A stretch of 64,000 nt of DNA from a virus (taxonomy: Duplodnaviria > Heunggongvirae > Uroviricota > Caudoviricetes), in IMG/VR virus record IMGVR_UViG_3300049215_000070. The stretch is one strand, 5' to 3'. Positions 1 to 64,000 of the stretch are shown here, one piece after another; position 1 is the stretch's first letter; each line of letters begins with the position of its first letter. The notes under the pieces are model-generated. The model was not told where the DNA came from. It worked only from the letters and a program-made list of their open reading frames with translations, and did not search any database. The translations under genes and the position numbers were made by a program.

Positions 1-115
1 GGTTGAGAACGTCTGGCAGGCTATTCCTACGGCGGCGCGTGGCAAGATGGTGCGCGCGGACGTTCACGCGGTGCTAGATGCAATCAACCAGCTGGCAATC
101 AAAGAGATTCAATGA
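1..115 (+). CDS. 3' fragment of hypothetical protein (complete copy at 58740..59108)
   Basis: Reads in frame to TGA at 113-115. Identical to the C-terminus ...AINQLAIKEIQ of ORF 58740..59108. Confidence 0.7.
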   Translation, partial: VENVWQAIPTAARGKMVRADVHAVLDAINQLAIKEIQ

Positions 116-594
116 TACTTCAGGATGTCATAGACTTCGCCGCGGGAAGCTTCGACTGCGTTATGGGTTACCCGGGCCGGTACGCCGACGGCAGCAAGGA
201 AAAGCCGCGCACCGGCAGCCGTGAGTACGTCACCTTGCGTCACAGCGCGCCAACGTATGACGCCGCATTTGGCTGGTACCAGGGCAACAACGGCGAGCAC
301 GAGCTGAGCTGCAAAATGATCGCCACGTTAGAAATGGCACGCCGAAGCGTAGGCAAGATCTCGTACAAGCCTAAGCTGTACTGGCGCCATGTTGACAAGG
401 TCGAGATGTATAAGGACGCGTGGAGGGTCGCGCACATCCGCACCCGGCTGTACATCGATGGCGTACGCAGTTACGGCGTCGCGCAAATCAAGGAAGGCCC
501 GCGCGCATACATGCAGCTGGTTGTCGACAACGCCCCTAATGTGGCACTATTGACGCTTCAGGATTATGAGCAGCACACAGGAGAGACAGCATGA
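112..594 (+). CDS. hypothetical protein (160 aa)
   Basis: ATGA start/stop coupling with upstream ORF. GC-rich ORF. No motif recognised. Confidence 0.6.
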   Translation: MILQDVIDFAAGSFDCVMGYPGRYADGSKEKPRTGSREYVTLRHSAPTYDAAFGWYQGNNGEHELSCKMIATLEMARRSVGKISYKPKLYWRHVDKVEMYKDAWRVAHIRTRLYIDGVRSYGVAQIKEGPRAYMQLVVDNAPNVALLTLQDYEQHTGETA

Positions 595-767
595 TTAGGA
601 TTGTGGATGAGAAGATTTTCAGCTTAACTAAAAATCAGTACCGGGATCTTAGATTCGAGTTTGATCAAGACCCAATTTACTGGTACTCGACCGATAAAGA
701 CTTCGAGTATTGGCTGGAAACCGTGAAAAAGATCCAGCACACCACTTACCGCGAAGAGAACCCATGA
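591..767 (+). CDS. small hypothetical protein (58 aa)
   Basis: AGGAGA RBS 8 nt upstream of ATG. ATGA overlap with neighbours on both sides. Confidence 0.5.
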   Translation: MIRIVDEKIFSLTKNQYRDLRFEFDQDPIYWYSTDKDFEYWLETVKKIQHTTYREENP

Positions 768-874
768 AGTACTCCTGGTACGTGATGATGCTGACCTGCG
801 TTTCGTTCGCGCTGGCGGGTGCAATTATCTACTTTGGCGGGCTATTGATGCTTGCGGCGTTTGGTGAGCTATGA
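764..874 (+). CDS. small hydrophobic membrane peptide (36 aa)
   Basis: MKYSWYVMMLTCVSFALAGAIIYFGGLLMLAAFGEL. ATGA coupling at both ends. Confidence 0.45.
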   Translation: MKYSWYVMMLTCVSFALAGAIIYFGGLLMLAAFGEL

Positions 875-1425
875 CAGACCGAGAGATCCTTTTGGTGGTA
901 ATGAAAAGATTGCGCAAATACGCCGAAAGCAAAACTCCTGCAAGCCCAAGATTTTTGAGCATGGAGGCCGACTGGATCGAGCGCAAGATGGGAGAGCAGG
1001 AAATCGAGCGCAATACCGTTAGCGGCTTGTGCGCGCCATTTGTTCCGGGTGATGTCCCAGGTAACGCCGTAGATTTAAAGCCCGTATACTCCGAGCCAGG
1101 AGCCATCAAGCCCGTAGACCCCAAGTTTGAATGCGATTGCGGCGCCAAGGAGTGGGGCACGGAGCATCGCTATTGGTGCCAAACCAATCCTCGTGCAAAC
1201 CATATGCACGCGTGGGTGCGTTTCAATAAGTTCCCGGGGCTGATGAGGTGCATACATGGCGCGTGCCTGGCTGTGTGGGACGATGGGCAGATTTACCCGA
1301 GCTTTGATGCATACCTCAAGTGTCAGGCTTTTCTGGAATCTTGCGAGAAAGAGTCAAAACCAGATCCCTTGCTAGAGCGTCGAGCCGCCGAAGACAAATA
1401 TCTGAACTGGGACTGGGGCTATTGA
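871..1425 (+). CDS. hypothetical protein, Cys/His-rich C-terminal half (possible Zn-binding)
   Basis: 184-aa ORF translationally coupled. Contains CDCG...C..H.H...C.HGAC pattern. Confidence 0.6.
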   Translation: MTDREILLVVMKRLRKYAESKTPASPRFLSMEADWIERKMGEQEIERNTVSGLCAPFVPGDVPGNAVDLKPVYSEPGAIKPVDPKFECDCGAKEWGTEHRYWCQTNPRANHMHAWVRFNKFPGLMRCIHGACLAVWDDGQIYPSFDAYLKCQAFLESCEKESKPDPLLERRAAEDKYLNWDWGY

Positions 1426-1643
1426 TGGCGGACGAGGTATCCCCGGTAATACGCCTTAGGCAGAGGAACTGCATTGGCAGCCGCGGCGCCGAGGATCACG
1501 GCTGGATCAAGGGCTTGGCCGACAAGACCCATCACTGCGCCTTCTGTGGCGTAAGCAAGCCCGACTGGGAGCAGATGATGAATGAGATGTGGTACAGCCC
1601 GGGGATCAACAGCGCGCAGTCTGGGCCAACGGGATACCCATGA
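1425..1643 (+). CDS. small Cys/His-containing protein (72 aa)
   Basis: ATGA overlap with upstream stop. HHCAFCG motif. Confidence 0.45.
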   Translation: MADEVSPVIRLRQRNCIGSRGAEDHGWIKGLADKTHHCAFCGVSKPDWEQMMNEMWYSPGINSAQSGPTGYP

Positions 1644-1684
1644 GCGAAGATTACAAAAATCTGGGAATTATATACTTAACCCCC

Positions 1685-1713
1685 TTGACATCCTTAAGGG
1701 AGTCATCTACACT
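1685..1713 (+). promoter_or_regulatory. sigma70-like promoter: TTGACA - 17 nt - TACACT
   Basis: Perfect -35 TTGACA (1685-1690), 17-nt spacer, -10 TACACT (1708-1713), in an AT-rich gap upstream of the ATG at 1752. Confidence 0.55.
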
Positions 1714-1741
1714 ATCAGCACTGGTTAGATTATTCTTAAGG
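1692..1741. promoter_or_regulatory. pair of palindromic operator-like sites CCTTAAGG (1692-1699) and CTTAAGG (1735-1741) bracketing the -10
   Basis: ATCCTTAAG at 1690-1698 is the exact reverse complement of CTTAAGGAT at 1733-1741. The first site lies in the promoter spacer, the second at about +20. Confidence 0.45.
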
Positions 1742-1751
1742 ATCAGCGCAG

Positions 1752-2009
1752 ATGGCCGAAGTGACACAGTTTGAGCAGGCAATTGACGAAGCCGGGTATG
1801 GTTTTTCCCAAAAAAATCTGACCGAAACCCACGAGACAATTGAGCATTTTGTTGCGGCGCGAGGCAGGCCACTGGTCGTAGATACCGAAAATGGTACTTT
1901 GCACATTTGGGAGAATGTGCAGCAGGCGAAGGGGCTGGTGCGCGGCAGCTTGATTGTGATGGATGCCGGAGATACCCGGTTTGCACATTTCGATGGTGAG
2001 AAGATTTGA
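1752..2009 (+). CDS. hypothetical protein (85 aa)
   Basis: First ORF downstream of the predicted promoter. No motif recognised. Confidence 0.55.
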   Translation: MAEVTQFEQAIDEAGYGFSQKNLTETHETIEHFVAARGRPLVVDTENGTLHIWENVQQAKGLVRGSLIVMDAGDTRFAHFDGEKI

Positions 2010-2042
2010 AATGAACGTCAAGCACCACAATCAGCCAGCTCA

Positions 2043-2276
2043 ATGAATATGAAGTCAGCAGCGCGGACAGTGGCGCGCCAGGAATATCCGGCCAGCCGAC
2101 AGCATCCCGATTGCCACCGTATGGTGGACTGGGAAAAGCCGGTTCTACCCGTTTTGTCACCGGGGATGGCGGCGAAAAGTGGAGGCGTCGTGTCCTCCAT
2201 GCTGCCCCGACATGGGAAGCCGGTGCAATTCCGGCCTGACTTCACTTCCATAAAAGAGGTGCCCCATGGTGACTGA
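2043..2276 (+). CDS. hypothetical protein (77 aa)
   Basis: ORF fills the gap between neighbouring genes. Weak call. Confidence 0.3.
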   Translation: MNMKSAARTVARQEYPASRQHPDCHRMVDWEKPVLPVLSPGMAAKSGGVVSSMLPRHGKPVQFRPDFTSIKEVPHGD

Positions 2277-2526
2277 CGCCGACCCGCCACCGATGCCGAC
2301 CGCCGAGGAAGCATTGCCGGTAGCAACGGCAAGCATTATGACTAAAAAGAAGTTGCAAGAAATGGGCGTCCCCCTTGAGGTCTCAGCATATATTTTGAAG
2401 CTCGAAACAGCTCTCAGGGAAGTTCTTTGGCAATGCCAGCATGGCCGCGCAGGGTCCGCTCCGAGTGACGGAATTGAGCGGCGCATTGAATCGCCAGAGT
2501 TCACAGCAACACAGGGTGACGGGTAA
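2266..2526 (+). CDS. hypothetical protein (86 aa)
   Basis: ORF in the co-directional gene train. No motif. Confidence 0.45.
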   Translation: MVTDADPPPMPTAEEALPVATASIMTKKKLQEMGVPLEVSAYILKLETALREVLWQCQHGRAGSAPSDGIERRIESPEFTATQGDG

Positions 2527-2529
2527 ATC

Positions 2530-2925
2530 GTGGATAGGTTCGAAGCGTTTACGGCGTATTTGATCTCTCTTGCGAAAGAGCGCCCTTACAAAATAGCTGG
2601 TGACGCTGCATGCGGATATTGGATGGCAATAGAATCAATGGCGCGCGCCGCTGAACTTGCAATGCATCAGCCAGCAACATCGAGTGACGGAGTAGAGCAT
2701 GGGAAACCTAAAGTAAAAGCGACGTTGCAAAGTGATGGGGTGTTATACAACACTAAAACACCCTCAGCCACTCCCACGCACGCGCCCGACCCGGAGCGCA
2801 TCGCCAGCCACGCCTGCGGCTACGGCTGCATCGAGCGTGGGCATCCTGAGCCTGACTGCCCCAAGCACGGCTGGGTGGTATCCGAGTGCCCTAGTAACTA
2901 CCTGACGTCGCGTGATACGTGGTAG
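2530..2925 (+). CDS. hypothetical protein immediately upstream of terminase large subunit (candidate small terminase subunit, speculative)
   Basis: GTG start. 131 aa. Sits where a small terminase subunit gene usually sits. C-terminal Cys/His cluster. Confidence 0.4.
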   Translation: MDRFEAFTAYLISLAKERPYKIAGDAACGYWMAIESMARAAELAMHQPATSSDGVEHGKPKVKATLQSDGVLYNTKTPSATPTHAPDPERIASHACGYGCIERGHPEPDCPKHGWVVSECPSNYLTSRDTW

Positions 2926-2982
2926 ATCAAGAAATGACCTACAACCGCCTGAGGGCCTCTGAGCGCCGCGAGACCGAAATGG

Positions 2983-4587
2983 GTGCCACAACCATCTGAC
3001 ATACTGGAGATCGGCCTTCGGCAGGGCTTTACGAAAGCTCAAACTGCAGCAGCGCTTCGCTCTCTTGACGACTTCGAGGTCGAACGTCTGGCGTGGATGT
3101 GCCGCTGGGTTGACGCGCGTCACGCTTTCCAGGTTGTTCCCGACGGGCAATGGTCCAACTGGGTAATCCTGGCCGGGAGAGGCAGCGGCAAGACCCGCGT
3201 AGGCGCCGAGTGGTCTGGCATGCGCTGCGCCATGGGCGAGAAGGGTCACCGTCACCTGGTAGTCGCGCCAACGAAAGCAGACTTGAGGGCGGTGTGCTTT
3301 GAGGGCGACTCTGGGTTGCTACGCGTGATACCGCCCAGCCTTATCAAGTACTACCACAAAACGCCCGCTCCTGAGATCGTGCTGCATAACGGCGCGCTGA
3401 TTGGCGGGATCGCTGCTGAGGCGTTCGAGCGTACCCGAGGCCCGCAGTGGCATGGCGCCTGGTGTGACGAGGTAGCGGCCTGGGGTGAGGGCGGCAAGGC
3501 TGATCCCGAAGAGGTGTGGGACACGATGGTGATGTCCATCCGGTTAGGTCAAGACACCCGCATCCTGGTGACCACGACGCCCAAGAACCGGCCACTGGTG
3601 AAGCGCCTGGTGGCGGATGAAGACAGCGTTATGACGTCCGCTAGCACGCACGTCAACACCTCGAACCTGTCCCCTGAGTTCGCGCGCCGAATCCTCAAGT
3701 ACGACGGCACCAAGATCGGACGGCAGGAGGTCTACGCGGAGCTGATTGACGCCGAGGAAGGCGGCATCATCAGCCGCAGCTGGCTGCGCCATTGGCCCGC
3801 CAACAAGCCGCTGCCTGAGTTCCATTTTATCGTGATGAGCCTGGATACCGCGTTTAGCGAGTCCGACCACGACAAGAAAAAGCAGACCACCGACCCGAGC
3901 GCGTGCAGCGTCTGGGGGTGCTTTAAGTACGAGCGTACGCTGCCCAGCGGGGAAAAGATCGAGAAGCCGGGGATTATTCTGCTGGATTGCTGGGCCGAGC
4001 ACCTTGGTTTTCCGGACCTGGTGGACAAGGTCAAGAACGAGTCAGACCCGGACAAGATCCGCTACGGCAGGAACCTGAGCGCCAAGCCCGTCATCACCCC
4101 AAGCAACGTGCCCAAGGCGTACAGGCGCATGGCACCGCCCAAGATGGGGGGGAGGGCCATTGACCTGATCGTTATCGAGGGCAAGGCCAGCGGCAAGAGC
4201 CTGCGTCAAACGCTGATGAAGGCCGAGATCAACAGCGTGGAGTTTAACCCGGGGAACGCGGACAAGCTCAGCCGGGGCCATTTCATCAGCCCAATCATCA
4301 AAGATGGTATCCTATGGGTACCCGATTCGCCCACCCCGGACAAGAACGGCAACCCCAAGTTCAGGAGCTGGGCCGAGCCATTGGTGGAGCAGCTGTGCAG
4401 CTACAGCGGCGAAGGTTCAGTGGTTCACGACGACTTGTACGACACCGCGACGCAGGGGTTGCGCGTGATCGACTGGTACTGGCTGCACCACCTAGAGCAA
4501 AAAGCCAAGAAAGCTAAAGGCGGCACCGGCATCCACGAGGACCGGCAGCCCGACAAGCGCATCATCACCAACCCGTACGCCGAGTAA
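2983..4587 (+). CDS. terL: terminase large subunit (ATPase + nuclease)
   Basis: Walker A VILAGRGSGKT. Length 534 aa. Followed by the portal gene. N-terminus uncertain: GTG at 2983, or first in-frame ATG at 3097. Confidence 0.85.
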   Translation: MPQPSDILEIGLRQGFTKAQTAAALRSLDDFEVERLAWMCRWVDARHAFQVVPDGQWSNWVILAGRGSGKTRVGAEWSGMRCAMGEKGHRHLVVAPTKADLRAVCFEGDSGLLRVIPPSLIKYYHKTPAPEIVLHNGALIGGIAAEAFERTRGPQWHGAWCDEVAAWGEGGKADPEEVWDTMVMSIRLGQDTRILVTTTPKNRPLVKRLVADEDSVMTSASTHVNTSNLSPEFARRILKYDGTKIGRQEVYAELIDAEEGGIISRSWLRHWPANKPLPEFHFIVMSLDTAFSESDHDKKKQTTDPSACSVWGCFKYERTLPSGEKIEKPGIILLDCWAEHLGFPDLVDKVKNESDPDKIRYGRNLSAKPVITPSNVPKAYRRMAPPKMGGRAIDLIVIEGKASGKSLRQTLMKAEINSVEFNPGNADKLSRGHFISPIIKDGILWVPDSPTPDKNGNPKFRSWAEPLVEQLCSYSGEGSVVHDDLYDTATQGLRVIDWYWLHHLEQKAKKAKGGTGIHEDRQPDKRIITNPYAE

Positions 4588-4589
4588 CT

Positions 4590-4907
4590 ATGGCAACCGA
4601 ACTAAGCTTTAACGCAGTCACGACCAACGCCGACGGAAGCGCGTTGACCCTGCCGGTGACCTACACCGCCCTGATCGACACCGTCAACCCGCCCGTGAAA
4701 GCGTACCCCATCCAGGCGAACATAGCCCCGGTGGCTGGTTTGATTATCGTGACCTTTGCCGAGCTGGGCTTCGTGCCTGCCGCGAACCAGAAGTACTTCG
4801 TTGAGGTGACCGCTACCGACAGCGCCGGAACTTCTGGACCCTCCAACGAGGCGACGTTCACCAACACGGTCGTGCTCAGCGAGCCGACGGGTTTAAAGGT
4901 TGGCTGA
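4590..4907 (+). CDS. hypothetical protein between terminase and portal (105 aa; carries a polymorphic residue, L vs P, between the two copies)
   Basis: ATG 2 nt after the terminase stop. The two sequence copies differ at 4893. Confidence 0.55.
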   Translation: MATELSFNAVTTNADGSALTLPVTYTALIDTVNPPVKAYPIQANIAPVAGLIIVTFAELGFVPAANQKYFVEVTATDSAGTSGPSNEATFTNTVVLSEPTGLKVG

Positions 4908-4962
4908 TCCGGTTATGGAACTGGATCAAGGAACTATTCAAGCCCTACTGAGCCGCTAAACT

Positions 4963-7635
4963 ATGTCGTCAGAATCCCAAATCCTGCAGAGCTTCGACGT
5001 CGAATCCCCCGAGGACGACCCAAACACCGACATCGCCACGGATGCCGCGGAGCGTAGCCAGGGCAAGGTGCCTGATGACGCCGACACCAAAGAGCTAGAC
5101 GACGGCTCAGCGATTCTGGCGCTGCATGACAACCGTGAGGTGGCTAAGGCCAAAGAGTTCTACGTCAACCTTGCCGAAGATATCCCAGAGGATCAGCTGC
5201 GTGACATCAGCACCAAGCTTCTTGACTTGTTTGATAAGGATGTTCAGGCGCGCGAAGACCGCGACAAGCAGTACGCCGAGGGGCTGCGTCGAACTGGGTT
5301 TTCTCAGGATGCACCTGGCGGCGCTAATTTCGATGGAGCTTCTAAGGTAGTTCACCCGCTGGTAGCGGAGGTAGCCATAGACTTCAGCGCGCGAGCGATC
5401 AAGGAACTGTGGCCCGCTGGTGGACCGTGCAAGGACAAGATCGTCGGCGAGCCTGACAACAAAAAGGAAGAGAAAGCCAAGCGAAAGGTGCGATGGCTCA
5501 ACTGGCAGATGACCGAGGGCATGCCGAGCATGCGCTACGAGATGGAGCAGATCCTGACGCAGGTGCCCATGGGCGGCGTGCAGTACTCCAAGCTCTGGTG
5601 GGACGTTAAGCGCAAGACGCCCGTGCATGAGGCGGTGTGGGTTGACGAGATCGTGCTGCCGTTTGCGGCGACTGATTTTTACTCAAGCCCGCGCAAGGCT
5701 CATATCCAGAAACTGGACGAGTTCACATTCCAAGACCGGGTGCGCAAGGGAATCTACCGTGACGTTGACACCATTGCGCTGGTTACTCAGCCGGATGAGA
5801 CGAAGGCTGAGCAGGCCAACAACCGCATCGAGGGAAAGTCGCAGACCAACTACAACGAGGACGGTCAGCGGGTTGTCATTGAGTTCGACGTGCAGTACGT
5901 GGTGCCTGACAGCGAGCGCGGCGTGGATGACCTCGATGATGCCGACGATATAGGTCCGGCGCCTTACCTGATTACGATTGACAAGGAGACGCGCAGTGTC
6001 CTCAGCATCTACCGAAACTGGGACGAGGACGACGAGAACATGGACGCCCTGGTCCATATCATCGAGTGGCCGTTCTTGCCGTGGCGCGGTGCTATGCCCA
6101 TTGGAGCGCCGCAAGTACTGGGAGGGATTGCGGCTGCTGCCACAGGAGCGCTCCGCGCCCTTCTGGATTCAGCCCTCATCAACAATTTTCCCGGCGGCGT
6201 CAGGCTCAAGTCAGGTCCAGTCGGTGGTCAATCTGTCACCGTAAGCGCCGGTCAGACTGCGGAGATTGACGGCGGGATCATGCAGGATGATATCCGCAAA
6301 ACCTTCATGCCGACGCCCGCGAACCCCACCAGTGCGGTGCTTCTGCAGCTGCTTGAGTTCCTGGTCGACAGCGGGCACGAGGTCGTCAAGACCACGCTGG
6401 ATGAGGCTAACGATAACGCCAATGTTCCCGTCGGGACCATCATGGCGCGCATCGAGCAGCAGATGGTGGTGTTCAGCGCCATCCACAGCCGACTCCACAA
6501 TGCGATGGGCAAGCTGCTGAAGGTGCTGCACCGTCTCAACGCCACCTACCTTGAGGACGATGACGTCGTATCCAAGACCGGCGAAAAGATGGTATTCAAG
6601 GCCGACTTTGACGCCCCGGATGATGTGATACCGGTATCAGACCCGGAGATATTCAGCGAGCTTCAGCGCATCGCCCAGGTGCAGACGGTAGCGCAGCGTG
6701 CGCAGCTGTTCCCGCAGCTGTACGACCAGCGCAAGGTTGAGCAGTCGATTCTCAAGATGATGAAGCTAACCGACCCGGAGCAGTACCTGCTGCCCAAGCC
6801 AGAACCGAAGCCGCTCAACGCGGTCAACGAAAACATCGCCGCCAGCCTTGGGCAGCCCATTACCGCGTTCCCAGACCAGGATCACCTTGCGCACATTCAA
6901 TCGCATATGTCGTTCATTGAAGACCCGCTATTCGGGGCAAACCCCCTCATGGCAGCTCAGGCGATTGGTGGCATACTCCAGAACGTCAAGGAGCACATGC
7001 TATTTTGGTACGGCACTGAGATACACCGCATCGCCTCTGAGGCCGCGGGTACTGACATATCTGAGTTCATGACCATAAAGGATGCCGAGGTGCAGACCAA
7101 GTTCGACGGCATGCTGGCCGCGGCAACGAACAATGTCCATGCGCAGAGCATGGCGGTGTTTGGCAAGCTCCCACCGGCTATCGCGAAAGCGCAGGCCATG
7201 CTGAAGCAGTTCAGCCAGCCGCCGCCGATGGACCCGAGCCAGGTCGCACTCCAGAAGGTTCAGGCAGACACCCAGCTTAAGCAGCAGCAGCTGCAGCAGC
7301 AGGCTCAGACTGATGCCCAGAACGCCGCGCTCAAGAACGCCGAAATCGCGCTTGAAGGTAAGACCCAAGAGGCGCAAATGACTGCCGACCAGCAAAGCGA
7401 CCAACTGGATGCCCAGAACAATCAGCTGAACAACCAAACCAAACAGCAAATTGCGGCGCACTCTGACCAGACCAAGCAGTCTGTTGCTCAATCTGAAAAC
7501 GCGACGAAGCTTACCGTTACCGCTCAGGACAACGAGGTGGCGCTGGAGATCGCGGGCGCGGAGCTGGCCGCTGGCAAGCACACCAACATCAAGAACGGAC
7601 AAGCAGTCGGCAAAGAAGACGGCGCCGCCAAGTAA
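4963..7635 (+). CDS. portal protein (890 aa) with Gln-rich coiled-coil C-terminal extension
   Basis: Large ORF directly after the terminase large subunit and before the scaffold and capsid genes. C-terminal QLKQQQLQQQAQ... low-complexity tail. Assignment by position and size. Confidence 0.65.
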   Translation: MSSESQILQSFDVESPEDDPNTDIATDAAERSQGKVPDDADTKELDDGSAILALHDNREVAKAKEFYVNLAEDIPEDQLRDISTKLLDLFDKDVQAREDRDKQYAEGLRRTGFSQDAPGGANFDGASKVVHPLVAEVAIDFSARAIKELWPAGGPCKDKIVGEPDNKKEEKAKRKVRWLNWQMTEGMPSMRYEMEQILTQVPMGGVQYSKLWWDVKRKTPVHEAVWVDEIVLPFAATDFYSSPRKAHIQKLDEFTFQDRVRKGIYRDVDTIALVTQPDETKAEQANNRIEGKSQTNYNEDGQRVVIEFDVQYVVPDSERGVDDLDDADDIGPAPYLITIDKETRSVLSIYRNWDEDDENMDALVHIIEWPFLPWRGAMPIGAPQVLGGIAAAATGALRALLDSALINNFPGGVRLKSGPVGGQSVTVSAGQTAEIDGGIMQDDIRKTFMPTPANPTSAVLLQLLEFLVDSGHEVVKTTLDEANDNANVPVGTIMARIEQQMVVFSAIHSRLHNAMGKLLKVLHRLNATYLEDDDVVSKTGEKMVFKADFDAPDDVIPVSDPEIFSELQRIAQVQTVAQRAQLFPQLYDQRKVEQSILKMMKLTDPEQYLLPKPEPKPLNAVNENIAASLGQPITAFPDQDHLAHIQSHMSFIEDPLFGANPLMAAQAIGGILQNVKEHMLFWYGTEIHRIASEAAGTDISEFMTIKDAEVQTKFDGMLAAATNNVHAQSMAVFGKLPPAIAKAQAMLKQFSQPPPMDPSQVALQKVQADTQLKQQQLQQQAQTDAQNAALKNAEIALEGKTQEAQMTADQQSDQLDAQNNQLNNQTKQQIAAHSDQTKQSVAQSENATKLTVTAQDNEVALEIAGAELAAGKHTNIKNGQAVGKEDGAAK

Positions 7636-7669
7636 CGTATAATGGGATCACAGCATCCAAGGAATCATC

Positions 7670-7843
7670 ATGAGCAACAAATCCGACCGCGAGAACAACA
7701 CCGGGCCAAAGAGCGAGGGAACCGATAGCAAGCAGATCGGCCCGCGCCAGGAGTACCGTCGCACCGGCACCGCGCCGAACGACGCCGACGCTAAATCCAA
7801 GGACAAAGGATTCGGCAAGCCGTCGACCCCGCAGCCTTGGTAG
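7670..7843 (+). CDS. small basic hypothetical protein (57 aa)
   Basis: ATG ORF MSNKSDRENNTGPK... in the gap after the portal. Below the ORF-track size threshold. Confidence 0.35.
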   Translation: MSNKSDRENNTGPKSEGTDSKQIGPRQEYRRTGTAPNDADAKSKDKGFGKPSTPQPW

Positions 7844-7884
7844 TGTGAGCATAGTGAATCTTTTGCGCCGATACAATCGTCAGC

Positions 7885-8094
7885 ATGAAAGCTAGCGGCA
7901 TTGAGCAGAAGCTGATACAGCACATGGAGCGGCTCGCTCACAGCACCAAGCTGAACGGCTGGACACCAATGAACGTGCCGGACATTGCTTATGAGGCTGG
8001 CAGGCGAATTGGGGTGAATCAGGGCATGGACATGATGCTGAAAGCCGCCATAGAATTTTTCACTGATGCAGAAGCAAAGGACACCGAACTGTGA
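7885..8094 (+). CDS. hypothetical protein (69 aa)
   Basis: ORF in the head-module gene train. Confidence 0.45.
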   Translation: MKASGIEQKLIQHMERLAHSTKLNGWTPMNVPDIAYEAGRRIGVNQGMDMMLKAAIEFFTDAEAKDTEL

Positions 8095-8549: not shown

Positions 8550-8682
8550 AGCGCCTGCACTACGTGTTGATTCATTTGTACGCCATCGCCGCGCTTGGCC
8601 TTGGGTTCCTTGGGGTTGGCTCGTTGCTGGCTCAGGCTCAGTGGCTGCGCGAGATAGCAATCATCTTGCACGGAACCCAGGT

Positions 8683-54904: not shown

Positions 54905-54973
54905 AAAAAAGCTTGCAAGGATCATGGGGGTGTGCAATGATACACCCACTGATCAAACCAACTGGAGAATGAG

Positions 54974-55892: not shown

Positions 55893-56002
55893 AAAACAAA
55901 GACATCATCGATTACATGCGCCCTGCAGAATGGGTAGTCGCCTTGTCGGTTTTCGGTATTATTATAATGTGGGTTGTCATAGGGAGCGTGGTGTTGCGAT
56001 GA
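55889..56002 (+). CDS. small membrane peptide (37 aa)
   Basis: ATGA coupling into the next gene. VVALSVFGIIIMWVVIGSVVL. Confidence 0.35.
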   Translation: MKNKDIIDYMRPAEWVVALSVFGIIIMWVVIGSVVLR

Positions 56003-56223
56003 GGTACGCCTACAAGGCCGGACCAGACGTAATTGCCAAGGTGCAGGCCTGGGACGCGGAGCGCCGCAAGCTAGGTAAAGTGGACGACGCCGTCACCCGT
56101 TGGCGAGCCGAGCGCAGGCGCATCGGTATGCCCAAAAAGGTCGCATCTGAACTTGGCGTGTCATTGACCACGTTATACTCGATACTCAAAAACGGAAGCA
56201 CGCTGAAAAAGGACAGAAGGTAA
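56000..56223 (+). CDS. HTH DNA-binding protein (74 aa)
   Basis: MPKKVASELGVSLTTLYSILKNG helix-turn-helix. Confidence 0.5.
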
Positions 56224-56227
56224 TCCA

Positions 56228-56434
56228 ATGGACCCGGTTCCAGAGATCGACCCCAAAAAGCTATTCGAGCAAGCCGACAAGGTTCTTAACCAGCTGGCTA
56301 GGCTTACGGACGCGGTGCTGCAGTCCATGAAATCCTATCACTGCGACCCGGCGGTTAGGATTCAAGCCGGGAACGCGGTGCAGCTGATAGTGAGCCTGAG
56401 AAAAAGTGTTGACACAGCCAATCAGGGCGCGTAA
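56228..56434 (+). CDS. hypothetical protein (68 aa)
   Basis: ORF in the gene train. Confidence 0.4.
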   Translation: MDPVPEIDPKKLFEQADKVLNQLARLTDAVLQSMKSYHCDPAVRIQAGNAVQLIVSLRKSVDTANQGA

Positions 56435-56469
56435 GGTACGCACATCGAAAACTGACTGGAGATGAAATC

Positions 56470-56688
56470 ATGAAGTTCCACGGCGACGTTCGTCCCTTGA
56501 GTCACGACGACCAATACATGGGCGTGGTCTTCGAGGGCGACATTGACGACGCGATACAGCAGGCGAAGCAATCGCCCAACCACGGCACCATGCCGCTGCA
56601 CGGTGAAGCTGCCAAATTTTTTTGGCTCAACCGCATGAGCCGCGACCGCATCGCGCTGCTGCAGCACCTAAACCTGATGCCGTCATGA
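56470..56688 (+). CDS. hypothetical protein (72 aa)
   Basis: GGAG RBS. Confidence 0.4.
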   Translation: MKFHGDVRPLSHDDQYMGVVFEGDIDDAIQQAKQSPNHGTMPLHGEAAKFFWLNRMSRDRIALLQHLNLMPS

Positions 56689-56960
56689 TAAGCGACCCTG
56701 GATTCTGGGGTCTTGAGTACGCCCAACGCCGGGGCTGGGTACCGGCCAAACCAAAGGAAAATGAAGTGAAATATCAGATCAGAAAAGAAAACAACAGCGT
56801 AGACCCATCGATGGTTATGTTTAACATTTACAAACTAAGCCCGAAGCCGCTTTACCTGACCGGCTTTGGTACACTTGAAGCGGCCATGAAAAATCTTGAA
56901 AAAATCATAAAACCCGCCAGCGAGGTAGTGTACGAGATCGAGGTGCCAGATGTTACCTAA
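56685..56960 (+). CDS. hypothetical protein (91 aa)
   Basis: ATGA coupling. Confidence 0.4.
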   Translation: MISDPGFWGLEYAQRRGWVPAKPKENEVKYQIRKENNSVDPSMVMFNIYKLSPKPLYLTGFGTLEAAMKNLEKIIKPASEVVYEIEVPDVT

Positions 56961-57195
56961 GGAGTGCGCGGGCGTTCAGCTTTCGGGAAAGCGCCGCGGG
57001 GCGCCTTGCCAGGCTCGACCGGTGTACCAGGTGAGAAACAAGCATTACTGCGTCCCTCACAGCGCCATAGCCGCCAAGGAGCCGCACAAGTTCCGCGAGG
57101 CTATAGAGACCAGCGTCCGGCGCATCGCCCGCCAGGTAGCCTCTGAGCGCGCCATGGCACGGCAGATCGACGCGTTTGAAGAGGCGTCACCATGA
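56950..57195 (+). CDS. Cys-containing hypothetical protein (81 aa)
   Basis: C..C....C..H pattern. Confidence 0.4.
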   Translation: MLPKECAGVQLSGKRRGAPCQARPVYQVRNKHYCVPHSAIAAKEPHKFREAIETSVRRIARQVASERAMARQIDAFEEASP

Positions 57196-57536
57196 GCGCC
57201 ATCATTTGGCGATATCTGCCCAGGTTTTTCGCTCGAAAGCGTAGCCTGTCGGGACCGGAGACTATTGAGGTTTGCGCGCAGGCAGACCTAAAGCCCCACG
57301 TCGGTATGCCCGCCACGCACCACATCGGCAGCGACAGCTACGGCGGAGAAATCATCGCGGTCAGCACGACCGGGCACCGCGTGACCTGGCAACGGATCGA
57401 CGCCAACGGCAACTCCAATCGCGTTTTTGTCAAGGAGTACTCACGCCGCCGCGACGGCAGTTACGTGGCTATCGGCAGTAAGTACGGCACCCTGGAACTG
57501 GGGATTGCCCGCACCGTGTTGGACGAGGGGTTTTAA
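57192..57536 (+). CDS. hypothetical protein (114 aa)
   Basis: ATGA coupling. Confidence 0.45.
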   Translation: MSAIIWRYLPRFFARKRSLSGPETIEVCAQADLKPHVGMPATHHIGSDSYGGEIIAVSTTGHRVTWQRIDANGNSNRVFVKEYSRRRDGSYVAIGSKYGTLELGIARTVLDEGF

Positions 57537-57613
57537 AATTGTGACAACTATTGTTATGAGGCGACGGCATCGCGTGGATACTACGTGTTCACGCCGCAAT
57601 GAACAGCAAGATA

Positions 57614-57638
57614 TTGAGCTGGATCAACGTGCTATAAT
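57614..57638 (+). promoter_or_regulatory. candidate promoter with extended -10 (TGcTATAAT)
   Basis: Perfect TATAAT at 57633-57638 preceded by TG at 57630-57631. Weak -35 TTGAGC with a short spacer. About 35 nt upstream of the ATG at 57671. Confidence 0.45.
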
Positions 57639-57670
57639 GGCGCTCCCTCATCAGCATAAGGCTAGCCTTC

Positions 57671-58309
57671 ATGGCAAGCGACAACACCCCTGGCAACGAT
57701 TCAACCAGTTCAAGCGCCCCGATCAGTTACGTGGAGGAGCTGAACCAGCGGCATCAGCGGTTCATAGCTCTGGGTGGAAAGCGCGACCTGCAGATGGACA
57801 TGAAGGGCTGGACCCCGCTCAAGGATCTGGTCACGGACCTGCACCGCAAAATCGTATTCGACCTGTCAGCGTCCGGCCTCAGCAACGAGGACGTGGCCGC
57901 GGTCGTCGGGATATCGAAGGAGAGGCTTCAGGAGCTGTTCAAGGTCGAGATCGCGACAGCGTACCAGCTGTGCCACGCGAGCCTGTCACGGAGCCTGTAC
58001 TACCAGGGAATCGCCGGGGACGAGAAGGCCGCGACAAATTGGCTGAAGTATCACAACCGCTCGAAGTGGGCGGCGAAGCAGCAGGTGTCCGGCGACCCAG
58101 ACGGCGCGCCAATAAAGACCGAGGACGCGTCATCCAAGACGCTGCTGAACGCGCTGCTTCAGGGTATGATGACGGACCCCGATCTTAAGGGCGCAAACAA
58201 GGAGGTAAAACGACCAGAATCTCATGAAAAAACCGCTCCTGTCAAGAGCGCGAAAAAAACTGGCAAGACCAAGATCGTGAAAAAGGTAAGGAAGGAAATT
58301 AATGAATAG
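57671..58309 (+). CDS. HTH-containing DNA-binding protein with Lys-rich C-terminal tail (212 aa); small terminase role possible but unsupported
   Basis: LSNEDVAAVVGISKERLQELF helix-turn-helix. Tail KTGKTKIVKKVRKE. Confidence 0.45.
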   Translation: MASDNTPGNDSTSSSAPISYVEELNQRHQRFIALGGKRDLQMDMKGWTPLKDLVTDLHRKIVFDLSASGLSNEDVAAVVGISKERLQELFKVEIATAYQLCHASLSRSLYYQGIAGDEKAATNWLKYHNRSKWAAKQQVSGDPDGAPIKTEDASSKTLLNALLQGMMTDPDLKGANKEVKRPESHEKTAPVKSAKKTGKTKIVKKVRKEINE

Positions 58310-58490
58310 CTTGCATCATCCGTGGCGCAAAAACTCGCCCAACTTTATTGTCCCGTCGAAGAAATCTAAGTCCGACAAAGTCGGCGTTACGATTCCGATA
58401 GAGTCAGTAACCCCTGAGGAATTTACCTGTATAATCCACGGTGTTCCCGCGCTCGCGGATCACAATTTGAGGAGAATGTCAGATGTTTAA
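58302..58490 (+). CDS. hypothetical protein (62 aa)
   Basis: ORF overlapping the upstream stop. Confidence 0.35.
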   Translation: MNSLHHPWRKNSPNFIVPSKKSKSDKVGVTIPIESVTPEEFTCIIHGVPALADHNLRRMSDV

Positions 58491-58743
58491 TTACACTCAA
58501 GATTTTAATTACACGCAAGATGACCCGCGAGACACCAACGGCGACCCAAAATTAAGCGAGAGCAAGCTCGACGTCCGCACCTCACAGCTTATCAACCAGC
58601 TGTATCACGAAATCGCGCGCCTGGAGCGTGCGGTAGACGATAGCTGTGAGCTGCTCGTGGAAGTTTTAGACGCGGAGGGTGAAGATCTCAACACGCTGCT
58701 TGGCAGAGTTCATCAGCACCTGGCTATCCATTTCCTGAAATGA
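58483..58743 (+). CDS. hypothetical protein (86 aa)
   Basis: ATG ORF. Confidence 0.4.
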   Translation: MFNYTQDFNYTQDDPRDTNGDPKLSESKLDVRTSQLINQLYHEIARLERAVDDSCELLVEVLDAEGEDLNTLLGRVHQHLAIHFLK

Positions 58744-59108
58744 CCCAGGTAAAGTGCCATCAGAAGGAGTCCGGCCCATCCTTGCGCATCGAGGAAAGGC
58801 CGGACGGCCCTGTCGTTGAGATCGACCAGAACGGCGGCATCACGCTGCACCGTGCCCCGCCGGATGAGGCCGGACGGTTGTTCTGGGAGGCGGTCAACTT
58901 CAACGGGATAACGTACCGGGAAATCATCGAGAAACTCAACCAAAAAATCGACACGCTGATGCTGGACCCGTTTCGGTCCATAGTTCACGGCCCGGTTGAG
59001 AACGTCTGGCAGGCTATTCCTACGGCGGCGCGTGGCAAGATGGTGCGCGCGGACGTTCACGCGGTGCTAGATGCAATCAACCAGCTGGCAATCAAAGAGA
59101 TTCAATGA
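58740..59108 (+). CDS. hypothetical protein (122 aa)
   Basis: ATGA coupling. Its 3' end equals window positions 1..115. Confidence 0.5.
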   Translation: MTQVKCHQKESGPSLRIEERPDGPVVEIDQNGGITLHRAPPDEAGRLFWEAVNFNGITYREIIEKLNQKIDTLMLDPFRSIVHGPVENVWQAIPTAARGKMVRADVHAVLDAINQLAIKEIQ

Positions 59109-59587
59109 TACTTCAGGATGTCATAGACTTCGCCGCGGGAAGCTTCGACTGCGTTATGGGTTACCCGGGCCGGTACGCCGACGGCAGCAAGGAAAAGCCG
59201 CGCACCGGCAGCCGTGAGTACGTCACCTTGCGTCACAGCGCGCCAACGTATGACGCCGCATTTGGCTGGTACCAGGGCAACAACGGCGAGCACGAGCTGA
59301 GCTGCAAAATGATCGCCACGTTAGAAATGGCACGCCGAAGCGTAGGCAAGATCTCGTACAAGCCTAAGCTGTACTGGCGCCATGTTGACAAGGTCGAGAT
59401 GTATAAGGACGCGTGGAGGGTCGCGCACATCCGCACCCGGCTGTACATCGATGGCGTACGCAGTTACGGCGTCGCGCAAATCAAGGAAGGCCCGCGCGCA
59501 TACATGCAGCTGGTTGTCGACAACGCCCCTAATGTGGCACTATTGACGCTTCAGGATTATGAGCAGCACACAGGAGAGACAGCATGA
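59105..59587 (+). CDS. hypothetical protein (second copy of 112..594)
   Basis: Identical translation. Confidence 0.6.
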   Translation: MILQDVIDFAAGSFDCVMGYPGRYADGSKEKPRTGSREYVTLRHSAPTYDAAFGWYQGNNGEHELSCKMIATLEMARRSVGKISYKPKLYWRHVDKVEMYKDAWRVAHIRTRLYIDGVRSYGVAQIKEGPRAYMQLVVDNAPNVALLTLQDYEQHTGETA

Positions 59588-59863
59588 TTAGGATTGTGGA
59601 TGAGAAGATTTTCAGCTTAACTAAAAATCAGTACCGGGATCTTAGATTCGAGTTTGATCAAGACCCAATTTACTGGTACTCGACCGATAAAGACTTCGAG
59701 TATTGGCTGGAAACCGTGAAAAAGATCCAGCACACCACTTACCGCGAAGAGAACCCATGAAGTACTCCTGGTACGTGATGATGCTGACCTGCGTTTCGTT
59801 CGCGCTGGCGGGTGCAATTATCTACTTTGGCGGGCTATTGATGCTTGCGGCGTTTGGTGAGCT

Positions 59864-60418
59864 ATGACAGACCGAGAGATCCTTTTGGTGGTAATGAAAA
59901 GATTGCGCAAATACGCCGAAAGCAAAACTCCTGCAAGCCCAAGATTTTTGAGCATGGAGGCCGACTGGATCGAGCGCAAGATGGGAGAGCAGGAAATCGA
60001 GCGCAATACCGTTAGCGGCTTGTGCGCGCCATTTGTTCCGGGTGATGTCCCAGGTAACGCCGTAGATTTAAAGCCCGTATACTCCGAGCCAGGAGCCATC
60101 AAGCCCGTAGACCCCAAGTTTGAATGCGATTGCGGCGCCAAGGAGTGGGGCACGGAGCATCGCTATTGGTGCCAAACCAATCCTCGTGCAAACCATATGC
60201 ACGCGTGGGTGCGTTTCAATAAGTTCCCGGGGCTGATGAGGTGCATACATGGCGCGTGCCTGGCTGTGTGGGACGATGGGCAGATTTACCCGAGCTTTGA
60301 TGCATACCTCAAGTGTCAGGCTTTTCTGGAATCTTGCGAGAAAGAGTCAAAACCAGATCCCTTGCTAGAGCGTCGAGCCGCCGAAGACAAATATCTGAAC
60401 TGGGACTGGGGCTATTGA
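59864..60418 (+). CDS. hypothetical Cys/His-rich protein (second copy of 871..1425)
   Basis: Identical translation. Confidence 0.6.
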   Translation: MTDREILLVVMKRLRKYAESKTPASPRFLSMEADWIERKMGEQEIERNTVSGLCAPFVPGDVPGNAVDLKPVYSEPGAIKPVDPKFECDCGAKEWGTEHRYWCQTNPRANHMHAWVRFNKFPGLMRCIHGACLAVWDDGQIYPSFDAYLKCQAFLESCEKESKPDPLLERRAAEDKYLNWDWGY

Positions 60419-60677
60419 TGGCGGACGAGGTATCCCCGGTAATACGCCTTAGGCAGAGGAACTGCATTGGCAGCCGCGGCGCCGAGGATCACGGCTGGAT
60501 CAAGGGCTTGGCCGACAAGACCCATCACTGCGCCTTCTGTGGCGTAAGCAAGCCCGACTGGGAGCAGATGATGAATGAGATGTGGTACAGCCCGGGGATC
60601 AACAGCGCGCAGTCTGGGCCAACGGGATACCCATGAGCGAAGATTACAAAAATCTGGGAATTATATACTTAACCCCC

Positions 60678-60706
60678 TTGACATCCTTAAGGGAGTCATC
60701 TACACT
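60678..60706 (+). promoter_or_regulatory. second copy of the TTGACA-17-TACACT promoter with CCTTAAGG operators
   Basis: Identical to 1685..1713. Confidence 0.55.
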
Positions 60707-61975
60707 ATCAGCACTGGTTAGATTATTCTTAAGGATCAGCGCAGATGGCCGAAGTGACACAGTTTGAGCAGGCAATTGACGAAGCCGGGTATGGTTTTTC
60801 CCAAAAAAATCTGACCGAAACCCACGAGACAATTGAGCATTTTGTTGCGGCGCGAGGCAGGCCACTGGTCGTAGATACCGAAAATGGTACTTTGCACATT
60901 TGGGAGAATGTGCAGCAGGCGAAGGGGCTGGTGCGCGGCAGCTTGATTGTGATGGATGCCGGAGATACCCGGTTTGCACATTTCGATGGTGAGAAGATTT
61001 GAAATGAACGTCAAGCACCACAATCAGCCAGCTCAATGAATATGAAGTCAGCAGCGCGGACAGTGGCGCGCCAGGAATATCCGGCCAGCCGACAGCATCC
61101 CGATTGCCACCGTATGGTGGACTGGGAAAAGCCGGTTCTACCCGTTTTGTCACCGGGGATGGCGGCGAAAAGTGGAGGCGTCGTGTCCTCCATGCTGCCC
61201 CGACATGGGAAGCCGGTGCAATTCCGGCCTGACTTCACTTCCATAAAAGAGGTGCCCCATGGTGACTGACGCCGACCCGCCACCGATGCCGACCGCCGAG
61301 GAAGCATTGCCGGTAGCAACGGCAAGCATTATGACTAAAAAGAAGTTGCAAGAAATGGGCGTCCCCCTTGAGGTCTCAGCATATATTTTGAAGCTCGAAA
61401 CAGCTCTCAGGGAAGTTCTTTGGCAATGCCAGCATGGCCGCGCAGGGTCCGCTCCGAGTGACGGAATTGAGCGGCGCATTGAATCGCCAGAGTTCACAGC
61501 AACACAGGGTGACGGGTAAATCGTGGATAGGTTCGAAGCGTTTACGGCGTATTTGATCTCTCTTGCGAAAGAGCGCCCTTACAAAATAGCTGGTGACGCT
61601 GCATGCGGATATTGGATGGCAATAGAATCAATGGCGCGCGCCGCTGAACTTGCAATGCATCAGCCAGCAACATCGAGTGACGGAGTAGAGCATGGGAAAC
61701 CTAAAGTAAAAGCGACGTTGCAAAGTGATGGGGTGTTATACAACACTAAAACACCCTCAGCCACTCCCACGCACGCGCCCGACCCGGAGCGCATCGCCAG
61801 CCACGCCTGCGGCTACGGCTGCATCGAGCGTGGGCATCCTGAGCCTGACTGCCCCAAGCACGGCTGGGTGGTATCCGAGTGCCCTAGTAACTACCTGACG
61901 TCGCGTGATACGTGGTAGATCAAGAAATGACCTACAACCGCCTGAGGGCCTCTGAGCGCCGCGAGACCGAAATGG

Positions 61976-63580
61976 GTGCCACAACCATCTGACATACTGG
62001 AGATCGGCCTTCGGCAGGGCTTTACGAAAGCTCAAACTGCAGCAGCGCTTCGCTCTCTTGACGACTTCGAGGTCGAACGTCTGGCGTGGATGTGCCGCTG
62101 GGTTGACGCGCGTCACGCTTTCCAGGTTGTTCCCGACGGGCAATGGTCCAACTGGGTAATCCTGGCCGGGAGAGGCAGCGGCAAGACCCGCGTAGGCGCC
62201 GAGTGGTCTGGCATGCGCTGCGCCATGGGCGAGAAGGGTCACCGTCACCTGGTAGTCGCGCCAACGAAAGCAGACTTGAGGGCGGTGTGCTTTGAGGGCG
62301 ACTCTGGGTTGCTACGCGTGATACCGCCCAGCCTTATCAAGTACTACCACAAAACGCCCGCTCCTGAGATCGTGCTGCATAACGGCGCGCTGATTGGCGG
62401 GATCGCTGCTGAGGCGTTCGAGCGTACCCGAGGCCCGCAGTGGCATGGCGCCTGGTGTGACGAGGTAGCGGCCTGGGGTGAGGGCGGCAAGGCTGATCCC
62501 GAAGAGGTGTGGGACACGATGGTGATGTCCATCCGGTTAGGTCAAGACACCCGCATCCTGGTGACCACGACGCCCAAGAACCGGCCACTGGTGAAGCGCC
62601 TGGTGGCGGATGAAGACAGCGTTATGACGTCCGCTAGCACGCACGTCAACACCTCGAACCTGTCCCCTGAGTTCGCGCGCCGAATCCTCAAGTACGACGG
62701 CACCAAGATCGGACGGCAGGAGGTCTACGCGGAGCTGATTGACGCCGAGGAAGGCGGCATCATCAGCCGCAGCTGGCTGCGCCATTGGCCCGCCAACAAG
62801 CCGCTGCCTGAGTTCCATTTTATCGTGATGAGCCTGGATACCGCGTTTAGCGAGTCCGACCACGACAAGAAAAAGCAGACCACCGACCCGAGCGCGTGCA
62901 GCGTCTGGGGGTGCTTTAAGTACGAGCGTACGCTGCCCAGCGGGGAAAAGATCGAGAAGCCGGGGATTATTCTGCTGGATTGCTGGGCCGAGCACCTTGG
63001 TTTTCCGGACCTGGTGGACAAGGTCAAGAACGAGTCAGACCCGGACAAGATCCGCTACGGCAGGAACCTGAGCGCCAAGCCCGTCATCACCCCAAGCAAC
63101 GTGCCCAAGGCGTACAGGCGCATGGCACCGCCCAAGATGGGGGGGAGGGCCATTGACCTGATCGTTATCGAGGGCAAGGCCAGCGGCAAGAGCCTGCGTC
63201 AAACGCTGATGAAGGCCGAGATCAACAGCGTGGAGTTTAACCCGGGGAACGCGGACAAGCTCAGCCGGGGCCATTTCATCAGCCCAATCATCAAAGATGG
63301 TATCCTATGGGTACCCGATTCGCCCACCCCGGACAAGAACGGCAACCCCAAGTTCAGGAGCTGGGCCGAGCCATTGGTGGAGCAGCTGTGCAGCTACAGC
63401 GGCGAAGGTTCAGTGGTTCACGACGACTTGTACGACACCGCGACGCAGGGGTTGCGCGTGATCGACTGGTACTGGCTGCACCACCTAGAGCAAAAAGCCA
63501 AGAAAGCTAAAGGCGGCACCGGCATCCACGAGGACCGGCAGCCCGACAAGCGCATCATCACCAACCCGTACGCCGAGTAA
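61976..63580 (+). CDS. terL: terminase large subunit (second copy)
   Basis: Identical translation to 2983..4587. Confidence 0.85.
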   Translation: MPQPSDILEIGLRQGFTKAQTAAALRSLDDFEVERLAWMCRWVDARHAFQVVPDGQWSNWVILAGRGSGKTRVGAEWSGMRCAMGEKGHRHLVVAPTKADLRAVCFEGDSGLLRVIPPSLIKYYHKTPAPEIVLHNGALIGGIAAEAFERTRGPQWHGAWCDEVAAWGEGGKADPEEVWDTMVMSIRLGQDTRILVTTTPKNRPLVKRLVADEDSVMTSASTHVNTSNLSPEFARRILKYDGTKIGRQEVYAELIDAEEGGIISRSWLRHWPANKPLPEFHFIVMSLDTAFSESDHDKKKQTTDPSACSVWGCFKYERTLPSGEKIEKPGIILLDCWAEHLGFPDLVDKVKNESDPDKIRYGRNLSAKPVITPSNVPKAYRRMAPPKMGGRAIDLIVIEGKASGKSLRQTLMKAEINSVEFNPGNADKLSRGHFISPIIKDGILWVPDSPTPDKNGNPKFRSWAEPLVEQLCSYSGEGSVVHDDLYDTATQGLRVIDWYWLHHLEQKAKKAKGGTGIHEDRQPDKRIITNPYAE

Positions 63581-63582
63581 CT

Positions 63583-63900
63583 ATGGCAACCGAACTAAGC
63601 TTTAACGCAGTCACGACCAACGCCGACGGAAGCGCGTTGACCCTGCCGGTGACCTACACCGCCCTGATCGACACCGTCAACCCGCCCGTGAAAGCGTACC
63701 CCATCCAGGCGAACATAGCCCCGGTGGCTGGTTTGATTATCGTGACCTTTGCCGAGCTGGGCTTCGTGCCTGCCGCGAACCAGAAGTACTTCGTTGAGGT
63801 GACCGCTACCGACAGCGCCGGAACTTCTGGACCCTCCAACGAGGCGACGTTCACCAACACGGTCGTGCCCAGCGAGCCGACTGGTTTAAAGGTTGGCTGA
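63583..63900 (+). CDS. hypothetical protein, variant copy (Pro instead of Leu vs 4590..4907)
   Basis: Translation differs at one residue (…TNTVVPSEPTG vs …TNTVVLSEPTG). Confidence 0.55.
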   Translation: MATELSFNAVTTNADGSALTLPVTYTALIDTVNPPVKAYPIQANIAPVAGLIIVTFAELGFVPAANQKYFVEVTATDSAGTSGPSNEATFTNTVVPSEPTGLKVG

Positions 63901-63955
63901 TCCGGTTATGGAACTGGATCAAGGAACTATTCAAGACCTACTGAGCCGCTAAACT

Positions 63956-64000
63956 ATGTCGTCAGAATCCCAAATCCTGCAGAGCTTCGACGTCGAATCC
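63956..64000 (+). CDS. portal protein, 5' fragment of second copy
   Basis: Same start context as 4963. Confidence 0.6.
   Translation, partial: MSSESQILQSFDVES

Follow-up and report, generated by a model that had tools for sequence, protein, structure and literature searches.

A 64-kb caudoviral sequence as a podophage genome probably assembled past full circle, with a candidate, possibly polymorphic -1 frameshift site beside its terminase gene

Direct repeats at the ends of tailed-phage sequences may belong to the virion DNA or arise during assembly, and both kinds have to be considered for the stretch described here, positions 1 to 64,000 of the IMG/VR virus record IMGVR_UViG_3300049215_000070 (Duplodnaviria; Heunggongvirae; Uroviricota; Caudoviricetes). 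In this stretch, which we call the window, the last 5,007 bp repeat the first 5,007 bp with three substitutions that sit close together just downstream of the gene for the large terminase subunit. Tailed phages replicate through concatemers, and phage T5 has a physical direct terminal repeat (DTR) of about 10 kb. Assemblers, for their part, leave short direct terminal repeats of k-mer size (55, 77, 99 or 127 bp) on circular genomes. The cultured phages closest to the window by protein are the Caulobacter phages RW, RLK, KcrB and GB2A (terminase 42-43% and portal 49% identical), which form the proposed genus Riverwalkvirus (PMC11053796). The GenBank record of RW (MK929790.1) carries an exact direct terminal repeat of 2,940 bp (1-2940 = 59423-62362) that covers the small-terminase gene and is not discussed in PMC11053796, a paper that does not describe the packaging mode of the RW group either, the best cultured match to the terminase at 42-43%. 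A further class was documented in the CheckV paper, which found concatenated genomes as an artefact in IMG/VR and other public metagenome and virome contigs and judged genomes repeated 2.0-6.8 times to be "probably artifacts of metagenomic assembly" (PMC8116208).

Like the CheckV contigs with a "large duplicated region" (k-mer frequency above 1; PMC8116208), the window holds a complete viral genome more than once, head to tail, with a period equal to the genome. It also resembles concatenated contigs in that its copies are identical save for isolated variant sites and in that its probable source contig of 106 kb compares with relatives of 55-62 kb. With the short k-mer repeats it would share its origin as a by-product of a circular or circularly permuted template and its arbitrary position, but the overlap is at least 5,007 bp, far over any k, and includes a variant bubble, from which it follows that the assembly path traversed the cycle again. 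Long physical DTRs such as those of T5 and RW (2,940 bp) are likewise kilobase direct repeats that involve the region of the packaging genes; unlike them, the repeat of the window has no defined boundaries, its copies differ and its source contig exceeds the genome plus one repeat. We consider it probable that the window derives from a podophage genome of about 59 kb that assembled as a circle and was written out more than once by the assembler, and that the mismatches are real variants.

Repeat period and probable source contig

Direct comparison within the window aligned 58994..64000 to 1..5007 without a gap, with exactly three substitutions and no indels, and every adjacent offset tried gave about 3,600-3,800 mismatches. 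The period of the repeat is 58,993 bp, so that the window holds 1.085 periods (64000/58993). These results agree with an earlier note on this DNA, made by a model from the letters alone, which had the genome present 1.085 times, the two stretches as duplicates of one another that are perfect outside three mismatches, and the complete terminase gene inside the duplicated stretch. This gene lies at 3097..4587 on the + strand (or at 2983-4587 if translation starts from an upstream GTG), matches PF03237 as well as the terminase families PHROG 38 and PHROG 2, and recurs without any difference at 62090-63580. One unit of the phage genome corresponds to 1..58993 (+) and contains terminase, portal, capsid, ejection, primase/helicase and exonuclease genes. 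The gene of the portal protein (4963..7635, +; 890 aa; PHROG 1216; 49% identical to an RW protein) is the first that lies only partly within the duplicated stretch.

The note had also presented the 5,007 bp as a terminal redundancy of the phage, a view that the limits of the repeat do not sustain. Copy 1 (1..5007) has the window edge as its left limit and copy 2 (58994..64000) has it as its right limit, so that both outer boundaries of the repeat coincide with edges of the window (base 1 and base 64000). Since copy 2 is cut by the window end, 5,007 bp is a lower bound and not a property of the element. Base 1 of the window also interrupts a gene, as it falls 254 nt into an open reading frame (ORF) of 369 nt that is intact across the start of copy 2 (58740..59108, +); the exact 122-aa product of this ORF is present on five contigs by protein look-up. 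Two contigs from other samples run through the same positions without a gap: L001 corresponds to 55466->64000 followed by 1->9278, and L002 to 57716->64000 followed by 1->5428. Because both are ungapped across 58993/58994 and 5007/5008, the arrangements ...58993|1... and ...5007|5008... are the ordinary order of this genome.

Exact look-up among 15 billion proteins pointed to a longer source. The Leu-allele protein of copy 1 (see below) was found on one contig only, a record of 106,276 bp that is the sole contig encoding the protein ...FTNTVVLSEPTGLKVG. The longest carrying contig was again of 106,276 bp for the terminase and the portal, for the Pro allele and for each of eight more proteins encoded in different parts of the window, and all window proteins that were tested and found by this look-up map to the contig of that size. 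The 64 kb of the window were thus almost certainly cut from a longer metagenomic contig, one of 106,276 bp. That size equals 1.80 genome units (106,276/58,993), and if this contig is tandem throughout, copy 2 could extend to 47,283 bp. The 1.8-fold figure rests on the contig size attached to exact protein matches and not on contig sequence, and the window itself shows 1.085 copies. A separate assembly with the same terminase is about one unit long (59,237 bp), and among the IMG/VR relatives the longer contigs range from 55 to 62 kb. The 110,994-bp IMG/VR contig L084, about twice the length of a 56,014-bp relative, was considered as a parallel concatemer and dropped when a 37-mer of the terminase matched it only once.

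The signs of a concatenated genome are therefore present at three levels, namely a head-to-tail repeat whose period is the complete genome (58,993 bp), a contig that by its exact proteins far exceeds the expected genome (106,276 bp, 1.80 units), and a junction that has no sequence of its own, is read through independently in L001 and L002, and is spanned by the intact ORF 58740-59108. Two properties of a DTR, defined internal boundaries and identical copies, are absent.

Two probable haplotypes and the origin of the second copy

The three substitutions lie at 4876 (T in copy 1, C in copy 2), 4889 (G/T) and 4943 (C/A), with counterparts in copy 2 at 63869, 63882 and 63936. They are 13 bp and then 54 bp apart and span 68 bp, so that copy 1 has the haplotype T-G-C (4876..4943, +) and copy 2 the haplotype C-T-A (63869..63936, +). 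Three random sites in 5007 bp would span 67 bp or less with a probability of 5.3e-4, and the clustering is real and beyond chance. The earlier note had named the right base changes and the Leu/Pro exchange at the first of them, though it placed the sites at 4893, 4905 and 4938, which is 5-17 bp away from their actual positions, and gave the cluster a span of 46 bp. The change at 4876 falls in codon 96 of a small gene behind the terminase (4590-4907; 105 aa). The change at 4889 is synonymous, in a third codon position at which homologues with the motif T_TTA_AAR vary freely between G, C and A. Site 4943 lies past the stop codon of this gene in frame 0, where it makes the difference between Pro (copy 1) and Thr (copy 2) in the -1 frame; it belongs to the penultimate codon of an extension described below, in the non-conserved tail.

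The haplotype of copy 2 recurs elsewhere: the region is covered by five independent contigs, from three ENA assemblies and two Logan runs, and every one of them has C-T-A. The outgroup L008/L009, whose small gene is 80% identical, has C-G-C and so matches two of the three states of copy 1; relative to this outgroup, copy 1 carries one derived change and copy 2 carries two. Each haplotype mixes ancestral and derived states, which is unlike sequencing noise, and judging from these comparisons the mismatches are probably two real haplotypes that coexist as population micro-diversity. This supports two further claims of the note, namely that the mismatches do not look like random error (given also their clustering, P = 5.3e-4) and that they may be collapsed or mixed variants of a population, which is the explanation we favour given the copy-2 haplotype in five independent contigs and two of three copy-1 states in the outgroup. 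Its "hot spot" found no such backing: two of the three sites (4889 and 4943) are weakly constrained, and what the region offers is a single pair of haplotypes.

Two local mechanisms of sequence exchange were considered and rejected. A donor for template switching or gene conversion within the genome would have left a second copy of the variant 25-mers, and none was found at up to 5 mismatches. The variable region of a diversity-generating retroelement was dismissed as well, in that there is no template repeat for the 25-mers (up to 5 mismatches, either strand) and the substitutions (T/C, G/T and C/A) do not keep to template adenines, as those of such elements do; the ORFs scanned included no reverse transcriptase. 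As a separate observation, contig L003 from another sample (ENA ERZ12293637 scaffold_72726_c1) ends at window position 4941, 2 nt before site 4943. This end may reflect a branch in the assembly graph, in which case the sample of L003 would hold the same C/A polymorphism, or it may be coincidence.

If the assembly graph contains the phage genome as a cycle, the redundancy would arise as follows. A contig path that circled about 1.8 times would pass twice along the same graph edges, so that both passes would be identical by construction and could diverge only at a bubble formed by two variants within the sample. Because the three sites are 13 and 54 bp apart, they would fall into one bubble for any k of at least 55, at which the first pass would have taken T-G-C and the second C-T-A. 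The assembler as producer of the extra copy and the presence of both haplotypes in the reads of that one sample are the parts of this scheme that we infer.

Several observations weigh against the assembly of a circular genome past its full length, or against the reality of its variants. That the remaining 42 kb of the 106,276-bp contig are more of the same genome is presumed, and pattern scans with an exact 32-mer in IMG/VR and a degenerate 53-mer in JGI metagenomes and GTDB genomes gave no match. A search at 58,994 and 47,283 for a repeat or another feature that could break the graph, and so account for the ends of the path, found none (the sole real repeat it gave is an array of 9.9 units of 18 bp at 55469-55646). 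T-G-C is private to copy 1, with no other contig carrying it, and Leu96 of copy 1 stands at a position where the copy-2 allele and the 21 homologues in the alignment, 22 sequences together, all have Pro. This Leu96 variant is probably rare, mildly deleterious or erroneous, and one or more of the three mismatches could be consensus errors. Given the RW record, moreover, in which the identity of 1-2940 with 59423-62362 starts inside a terminase-like ORF, long physical repeats may exist in this lineage.

The record of RW, together with the matching record sizes of all four Riverwalk isolates (PMC11053796), is what speaks for a long physical DTR whose ends are fixed in the virion DNA, like those of T5, SPO1 and the RW phages, with the mismatches as population variation between the two ends. 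We regard such a repeat as very unlikely for the window: neither of its outer boundaries is visible, with base 1 in the middle of a gene; it cannot yield the 1.8 genome units of the probable source contig; the genes of the RW repeat have no detectable homologues in the window; and two copies on one molecule, made from one template, should be identical but differ here by three substitutions. The last of these points also bears on a real tandem molecule, be it a replicative or packaging concatemer captured in long reads or a tandem double prophage. Copies of one template should lack a linked haplotype difference of three single-nucleotide polymorphisms (SNPs), two of the three copy-1 states match the outgroup, and no packaging or replication mechanism predicts the genuine tandem of two different genome copies that the earlier note had offered as an alternative. 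Errors of long reads are mostly indels, yet the 5007 bp contain none. A double prophage is further disfavoured by the lack of host DNA and of an att-like junction (the two copies meet within an intact phage gene), and no integrase was found among the large ORFs scanned. A concatemer that was sequenced in long reads would nevertheless be expected to give a contig of 1.8 units, either as a single read or after assembly. We rate a true tandem as unlikely.

The private haplotype of copy 1 and its Leu96 at an otherwise invariant Pro would also fit a single true allele, in which case the three mismatches would be local errors of consensus or assembly and the redundancy would still be an artefact of circular assembly. 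In the same direction, two Logan runs yielded contigs that cross the region without a break and carry C-T-A. Three errors confined to 68 bp, with the rest of the 5 kb perfect, are, however, improbable (P = 5.3e-4), G4889 and C4943 are the very bases of the outgroup L008/L009, and the odd copy is the internal one rather than the copy near the window end. The paths of de Bruijn assemblers contain only k-mers that are present in the reads, and such a path cannot hold k-mers that the reads lack. Pure error is possible for T4876 and less so for 4889 and 4943, and as an account of all three sites it seems distinctly improbable to us.

A genome that was assembled past full circle over a real bubble thus remains our preferred explanation, and the redundancy is probably an ordinary product of assembly of a known kind, with a mismatch cluster that records real micro-diversity of the population. 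In practice, the window is best treated as one genome of 58,993 bp, not as one of 64 kb or 106 kb, and its 5-kb repeat should not be reported as a packaging feature; calls of genome size, completeness and termini all depend on this reading.

A candidate -1 frameshift site in a small FN3-like gene

The 105-aa protein encoded at 4590..4907 (+; copy 2: 63583-63900) has no match in Pfam or PHROG. It is modelled as a beta-sandwich (pLDDT 81), and the Foldseek matches listed for this model are almost all FN3 domains, each of them weak (TM of about 0.5), so that we refer to an FN3-like accessory gene. The gene and the spacer behind it (4590-4959) are present in the window and in L008/L009 and absent between terminase and portal in the closest terminase relatives L007 and L010-L012 (counterpart intervals without the gene are L007:10106-10306 and L010:11400-11623). 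Elsewhere, in other phages, the FN3-like gene adjoins unrelated genes (lysozyme, a portal-sized gene or SLT). To judge by its distribution it seems to behave as a mobile insertion/deletion cassette, and its family of mobile accessory genes is apparently undescribed.

At its 3' end, this gene holds what looks like a conserved candidate site of -1 programmed ribosomal frameshifting (PRF). A slippery heptamer T_TTA_AAG lies in frame at 4892..4898 (+) and ends 6 nt before the TGA stop codon; extended to 4889-4898, the slippery run reads GGGTTTAAAG in copy 1 and TGGTTTAAAG in copy 2. In 18 of the 19 distinct loci of homologues, a canonical X_XXY_YYZ heptamer ends 6 or 9 nt ahead of the stop codon, in the forms T_TTA_AAR, C_CCA_AAA, G_GGT_TTT and G_GGT_TTC; L100 has an imperfect CCTAAAA. 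The heptamer is kept even where the encoded residues switch from GL to NP, and TTA accounts for only 6% of the Leu codons in this genome. Sites of the types U_UUA_AAG and X_XXA_AAG are known to shift on bacterial ribosomes (PMC5009743).

The heptamer is followed after 6 nt by a hairpin at 4905..4928 (+) whose stem of 10 bp pairs 4905-4914 with 4919-4928 around the loop ATGG, at -13.5 kcal/mol and z = -4.1. Across 11 homologues, 92.7% of the cells in the hairpin alignment are paired (17-57% in controls in which the hairpin was slid along the sequence), both sides have changed in 5 of the 10 pairs, and the covariation score of 0.427 compares with 0.262 for shuffles, none of 500 of which reached the observed value. 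The columns of the hairpin also code in the -1 frame, so that signals of structure and of coding are confounded in these figures.

A shift into the -1 frame would add the extension GWLIRLWNWIKELFKPY-stop (4898..4951, +), 17 residues that would turn the 105-aa product into one of 120 aa. This frame is open for 14-30 codons across the homologues, and the extension follows a conserved motif, [WFL]L[IS][RQ][LF]WxW[IL]xx[LI]F-stop; the homologues that share it end in L/I-F-stop by way of varied codons and varied stop codons. In nine of 11 loci checked (including the window, L008, L089, L090 and L092) there is no ATG, GTG or TTG in the -1 frame between the upstream stop and the heptamer, and in the other two, L096 and L101, the sole start codon of this frame is the last codon before the stop of frame 0. 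The whole cassette covers 4889-4951 (copy 2: 63882-63944), with homologous loci in L008, L089-L093, L096, L099-L101, L114-L119 and L121, a small sample whose members are related.

Compared with described -1 frameshift systems that produce C-terminal extensions, such as gene 10A/10B of T7 and T3, Ig-like extensions and X_XXA_AAG sites of the dnaX type (PMC5009743), the candidate has in common an in-frame heptamer that ends in A_AAG or A_AAA and is followed 6 nt further on by a stem-loop, a -1 ORF that is short, conserved and without a start codon, and a mobile domain of the Ig/FN3 type. Ig-like domains of phages are often joined to their partners by frameshifting (PMC5009743). The arrangement differs in that the FN3-like domain is here the upstream product of frame 0, to which the shift would add a Trp-rich tail of 14-25 residues, rather than an Ig-like domain that is added to a capsid or tail protein. 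It also differs as a free-standing accessory cassette of 105 aa, and as a candidate known here from sequence. The cassette would be a further case of the known -1 PRF that gives rise to a C-terminal extension.

Relative to this cassette, the three SNPs fall 16 nt and 3 nt upstream of the heptamer and into the penultimate codon of the extension. A tentative idea, to which we give somewhat less than even chances, is that the cluster is a polymorphic recoding site at which the mobile FN3-like gene yields two forms, one of 105 aa that is bare and one of 120 aa whose tail is Trp-rich and amphipathic. Between the haplotypes there are differences in the codon that precedes the shift site, in the base by which the slippery run is extended and in the tail (Pro/Thr), and it is the ratio of the two isoforms or their properties that these variants might tune. 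We found no evidence that the three SNPs alter frameshifting. The base G4889 was considered as significant for the shift site and set aside: this column varies freely (G, C or A) while T_TTA_AAR is kept, and the G/T difference is probably neutral.

Relatives, gene content and implications

Nearly all genes of the window lie on the + strand. One unit encodes, besides the terminase and portal already described, the major capsid protein (11878-12795), virion and ejection proteins, a primase/helicase, an exonuclease and a single tRNA-Met, the latter at 9239-9314 (+). Megablast of the first 8 kb against a phage collection of 50,697 records gave no nucleotide match, and the window terminase has no sequence match to solved terminases at E <= 0.01. 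Terminases of uncultured relatives in IMG/VR reach up to 86% identity. The unit length of the cultured RW group is 59,422 bp.

Several other genes of the window deserve mention. Not far from each other on the - strand lie a gene with the N-terminal domain of a dATP/dGTP diphosphohydrolase (41935-42405; PF18909, E = 2e-29) and a gene for a MazG pyrophosphohydrolase (42626-42964), a pair that brings base-modification pathways to mind; the ORFs scanned showed no PurZ-like gene. The 18-bp array with its 9.9 units at 55469-55646 is part of an ORF at 55332-55892 (+) and encodes hexapeptide repeats of a YdcK-type beta-solenoid protein. The array differs from that of L001 at four positions (55474-55486) and is therefore variable from sample to sample. 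Among replication genes and small genes, at 52638-54467 (+), lies the gene of a 609-aa protein that has a domain of glycoside hydrolase family 5 (cellulase; E = 5e-24) and may be a polysaccharide depolymerase. Directly after the ejection-protein genes follows an ORF for a 1386-aa protein (35967-40127, +) with a GNAT acetyltransferase domain at residues ~253-332, whose exact sequence is absent from the protein collection, perhaps through a different start call. We further note a GroES-like co-chaperonin (8091-8549, +; 52% identical to GP090c of RW) and a 376-aa protein (34910-36040, +) with an N-terminal helix-turn-helix that weakly resembles GcrA-type regulators.

The redundancy of the window itself teaches nothing new about the biology of this phage. 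Its value lies in that the presence of the same 5 kb twice exposed a natural pair of haplotypes, which led to the cassette at the end of the FN3-like gene. If confirmed, this cassette would be a compact and testable addition to the short list of recoding signals in bacteria and phages, and it would offer a handle on the role of free-standing Ig-like accessory proteins.

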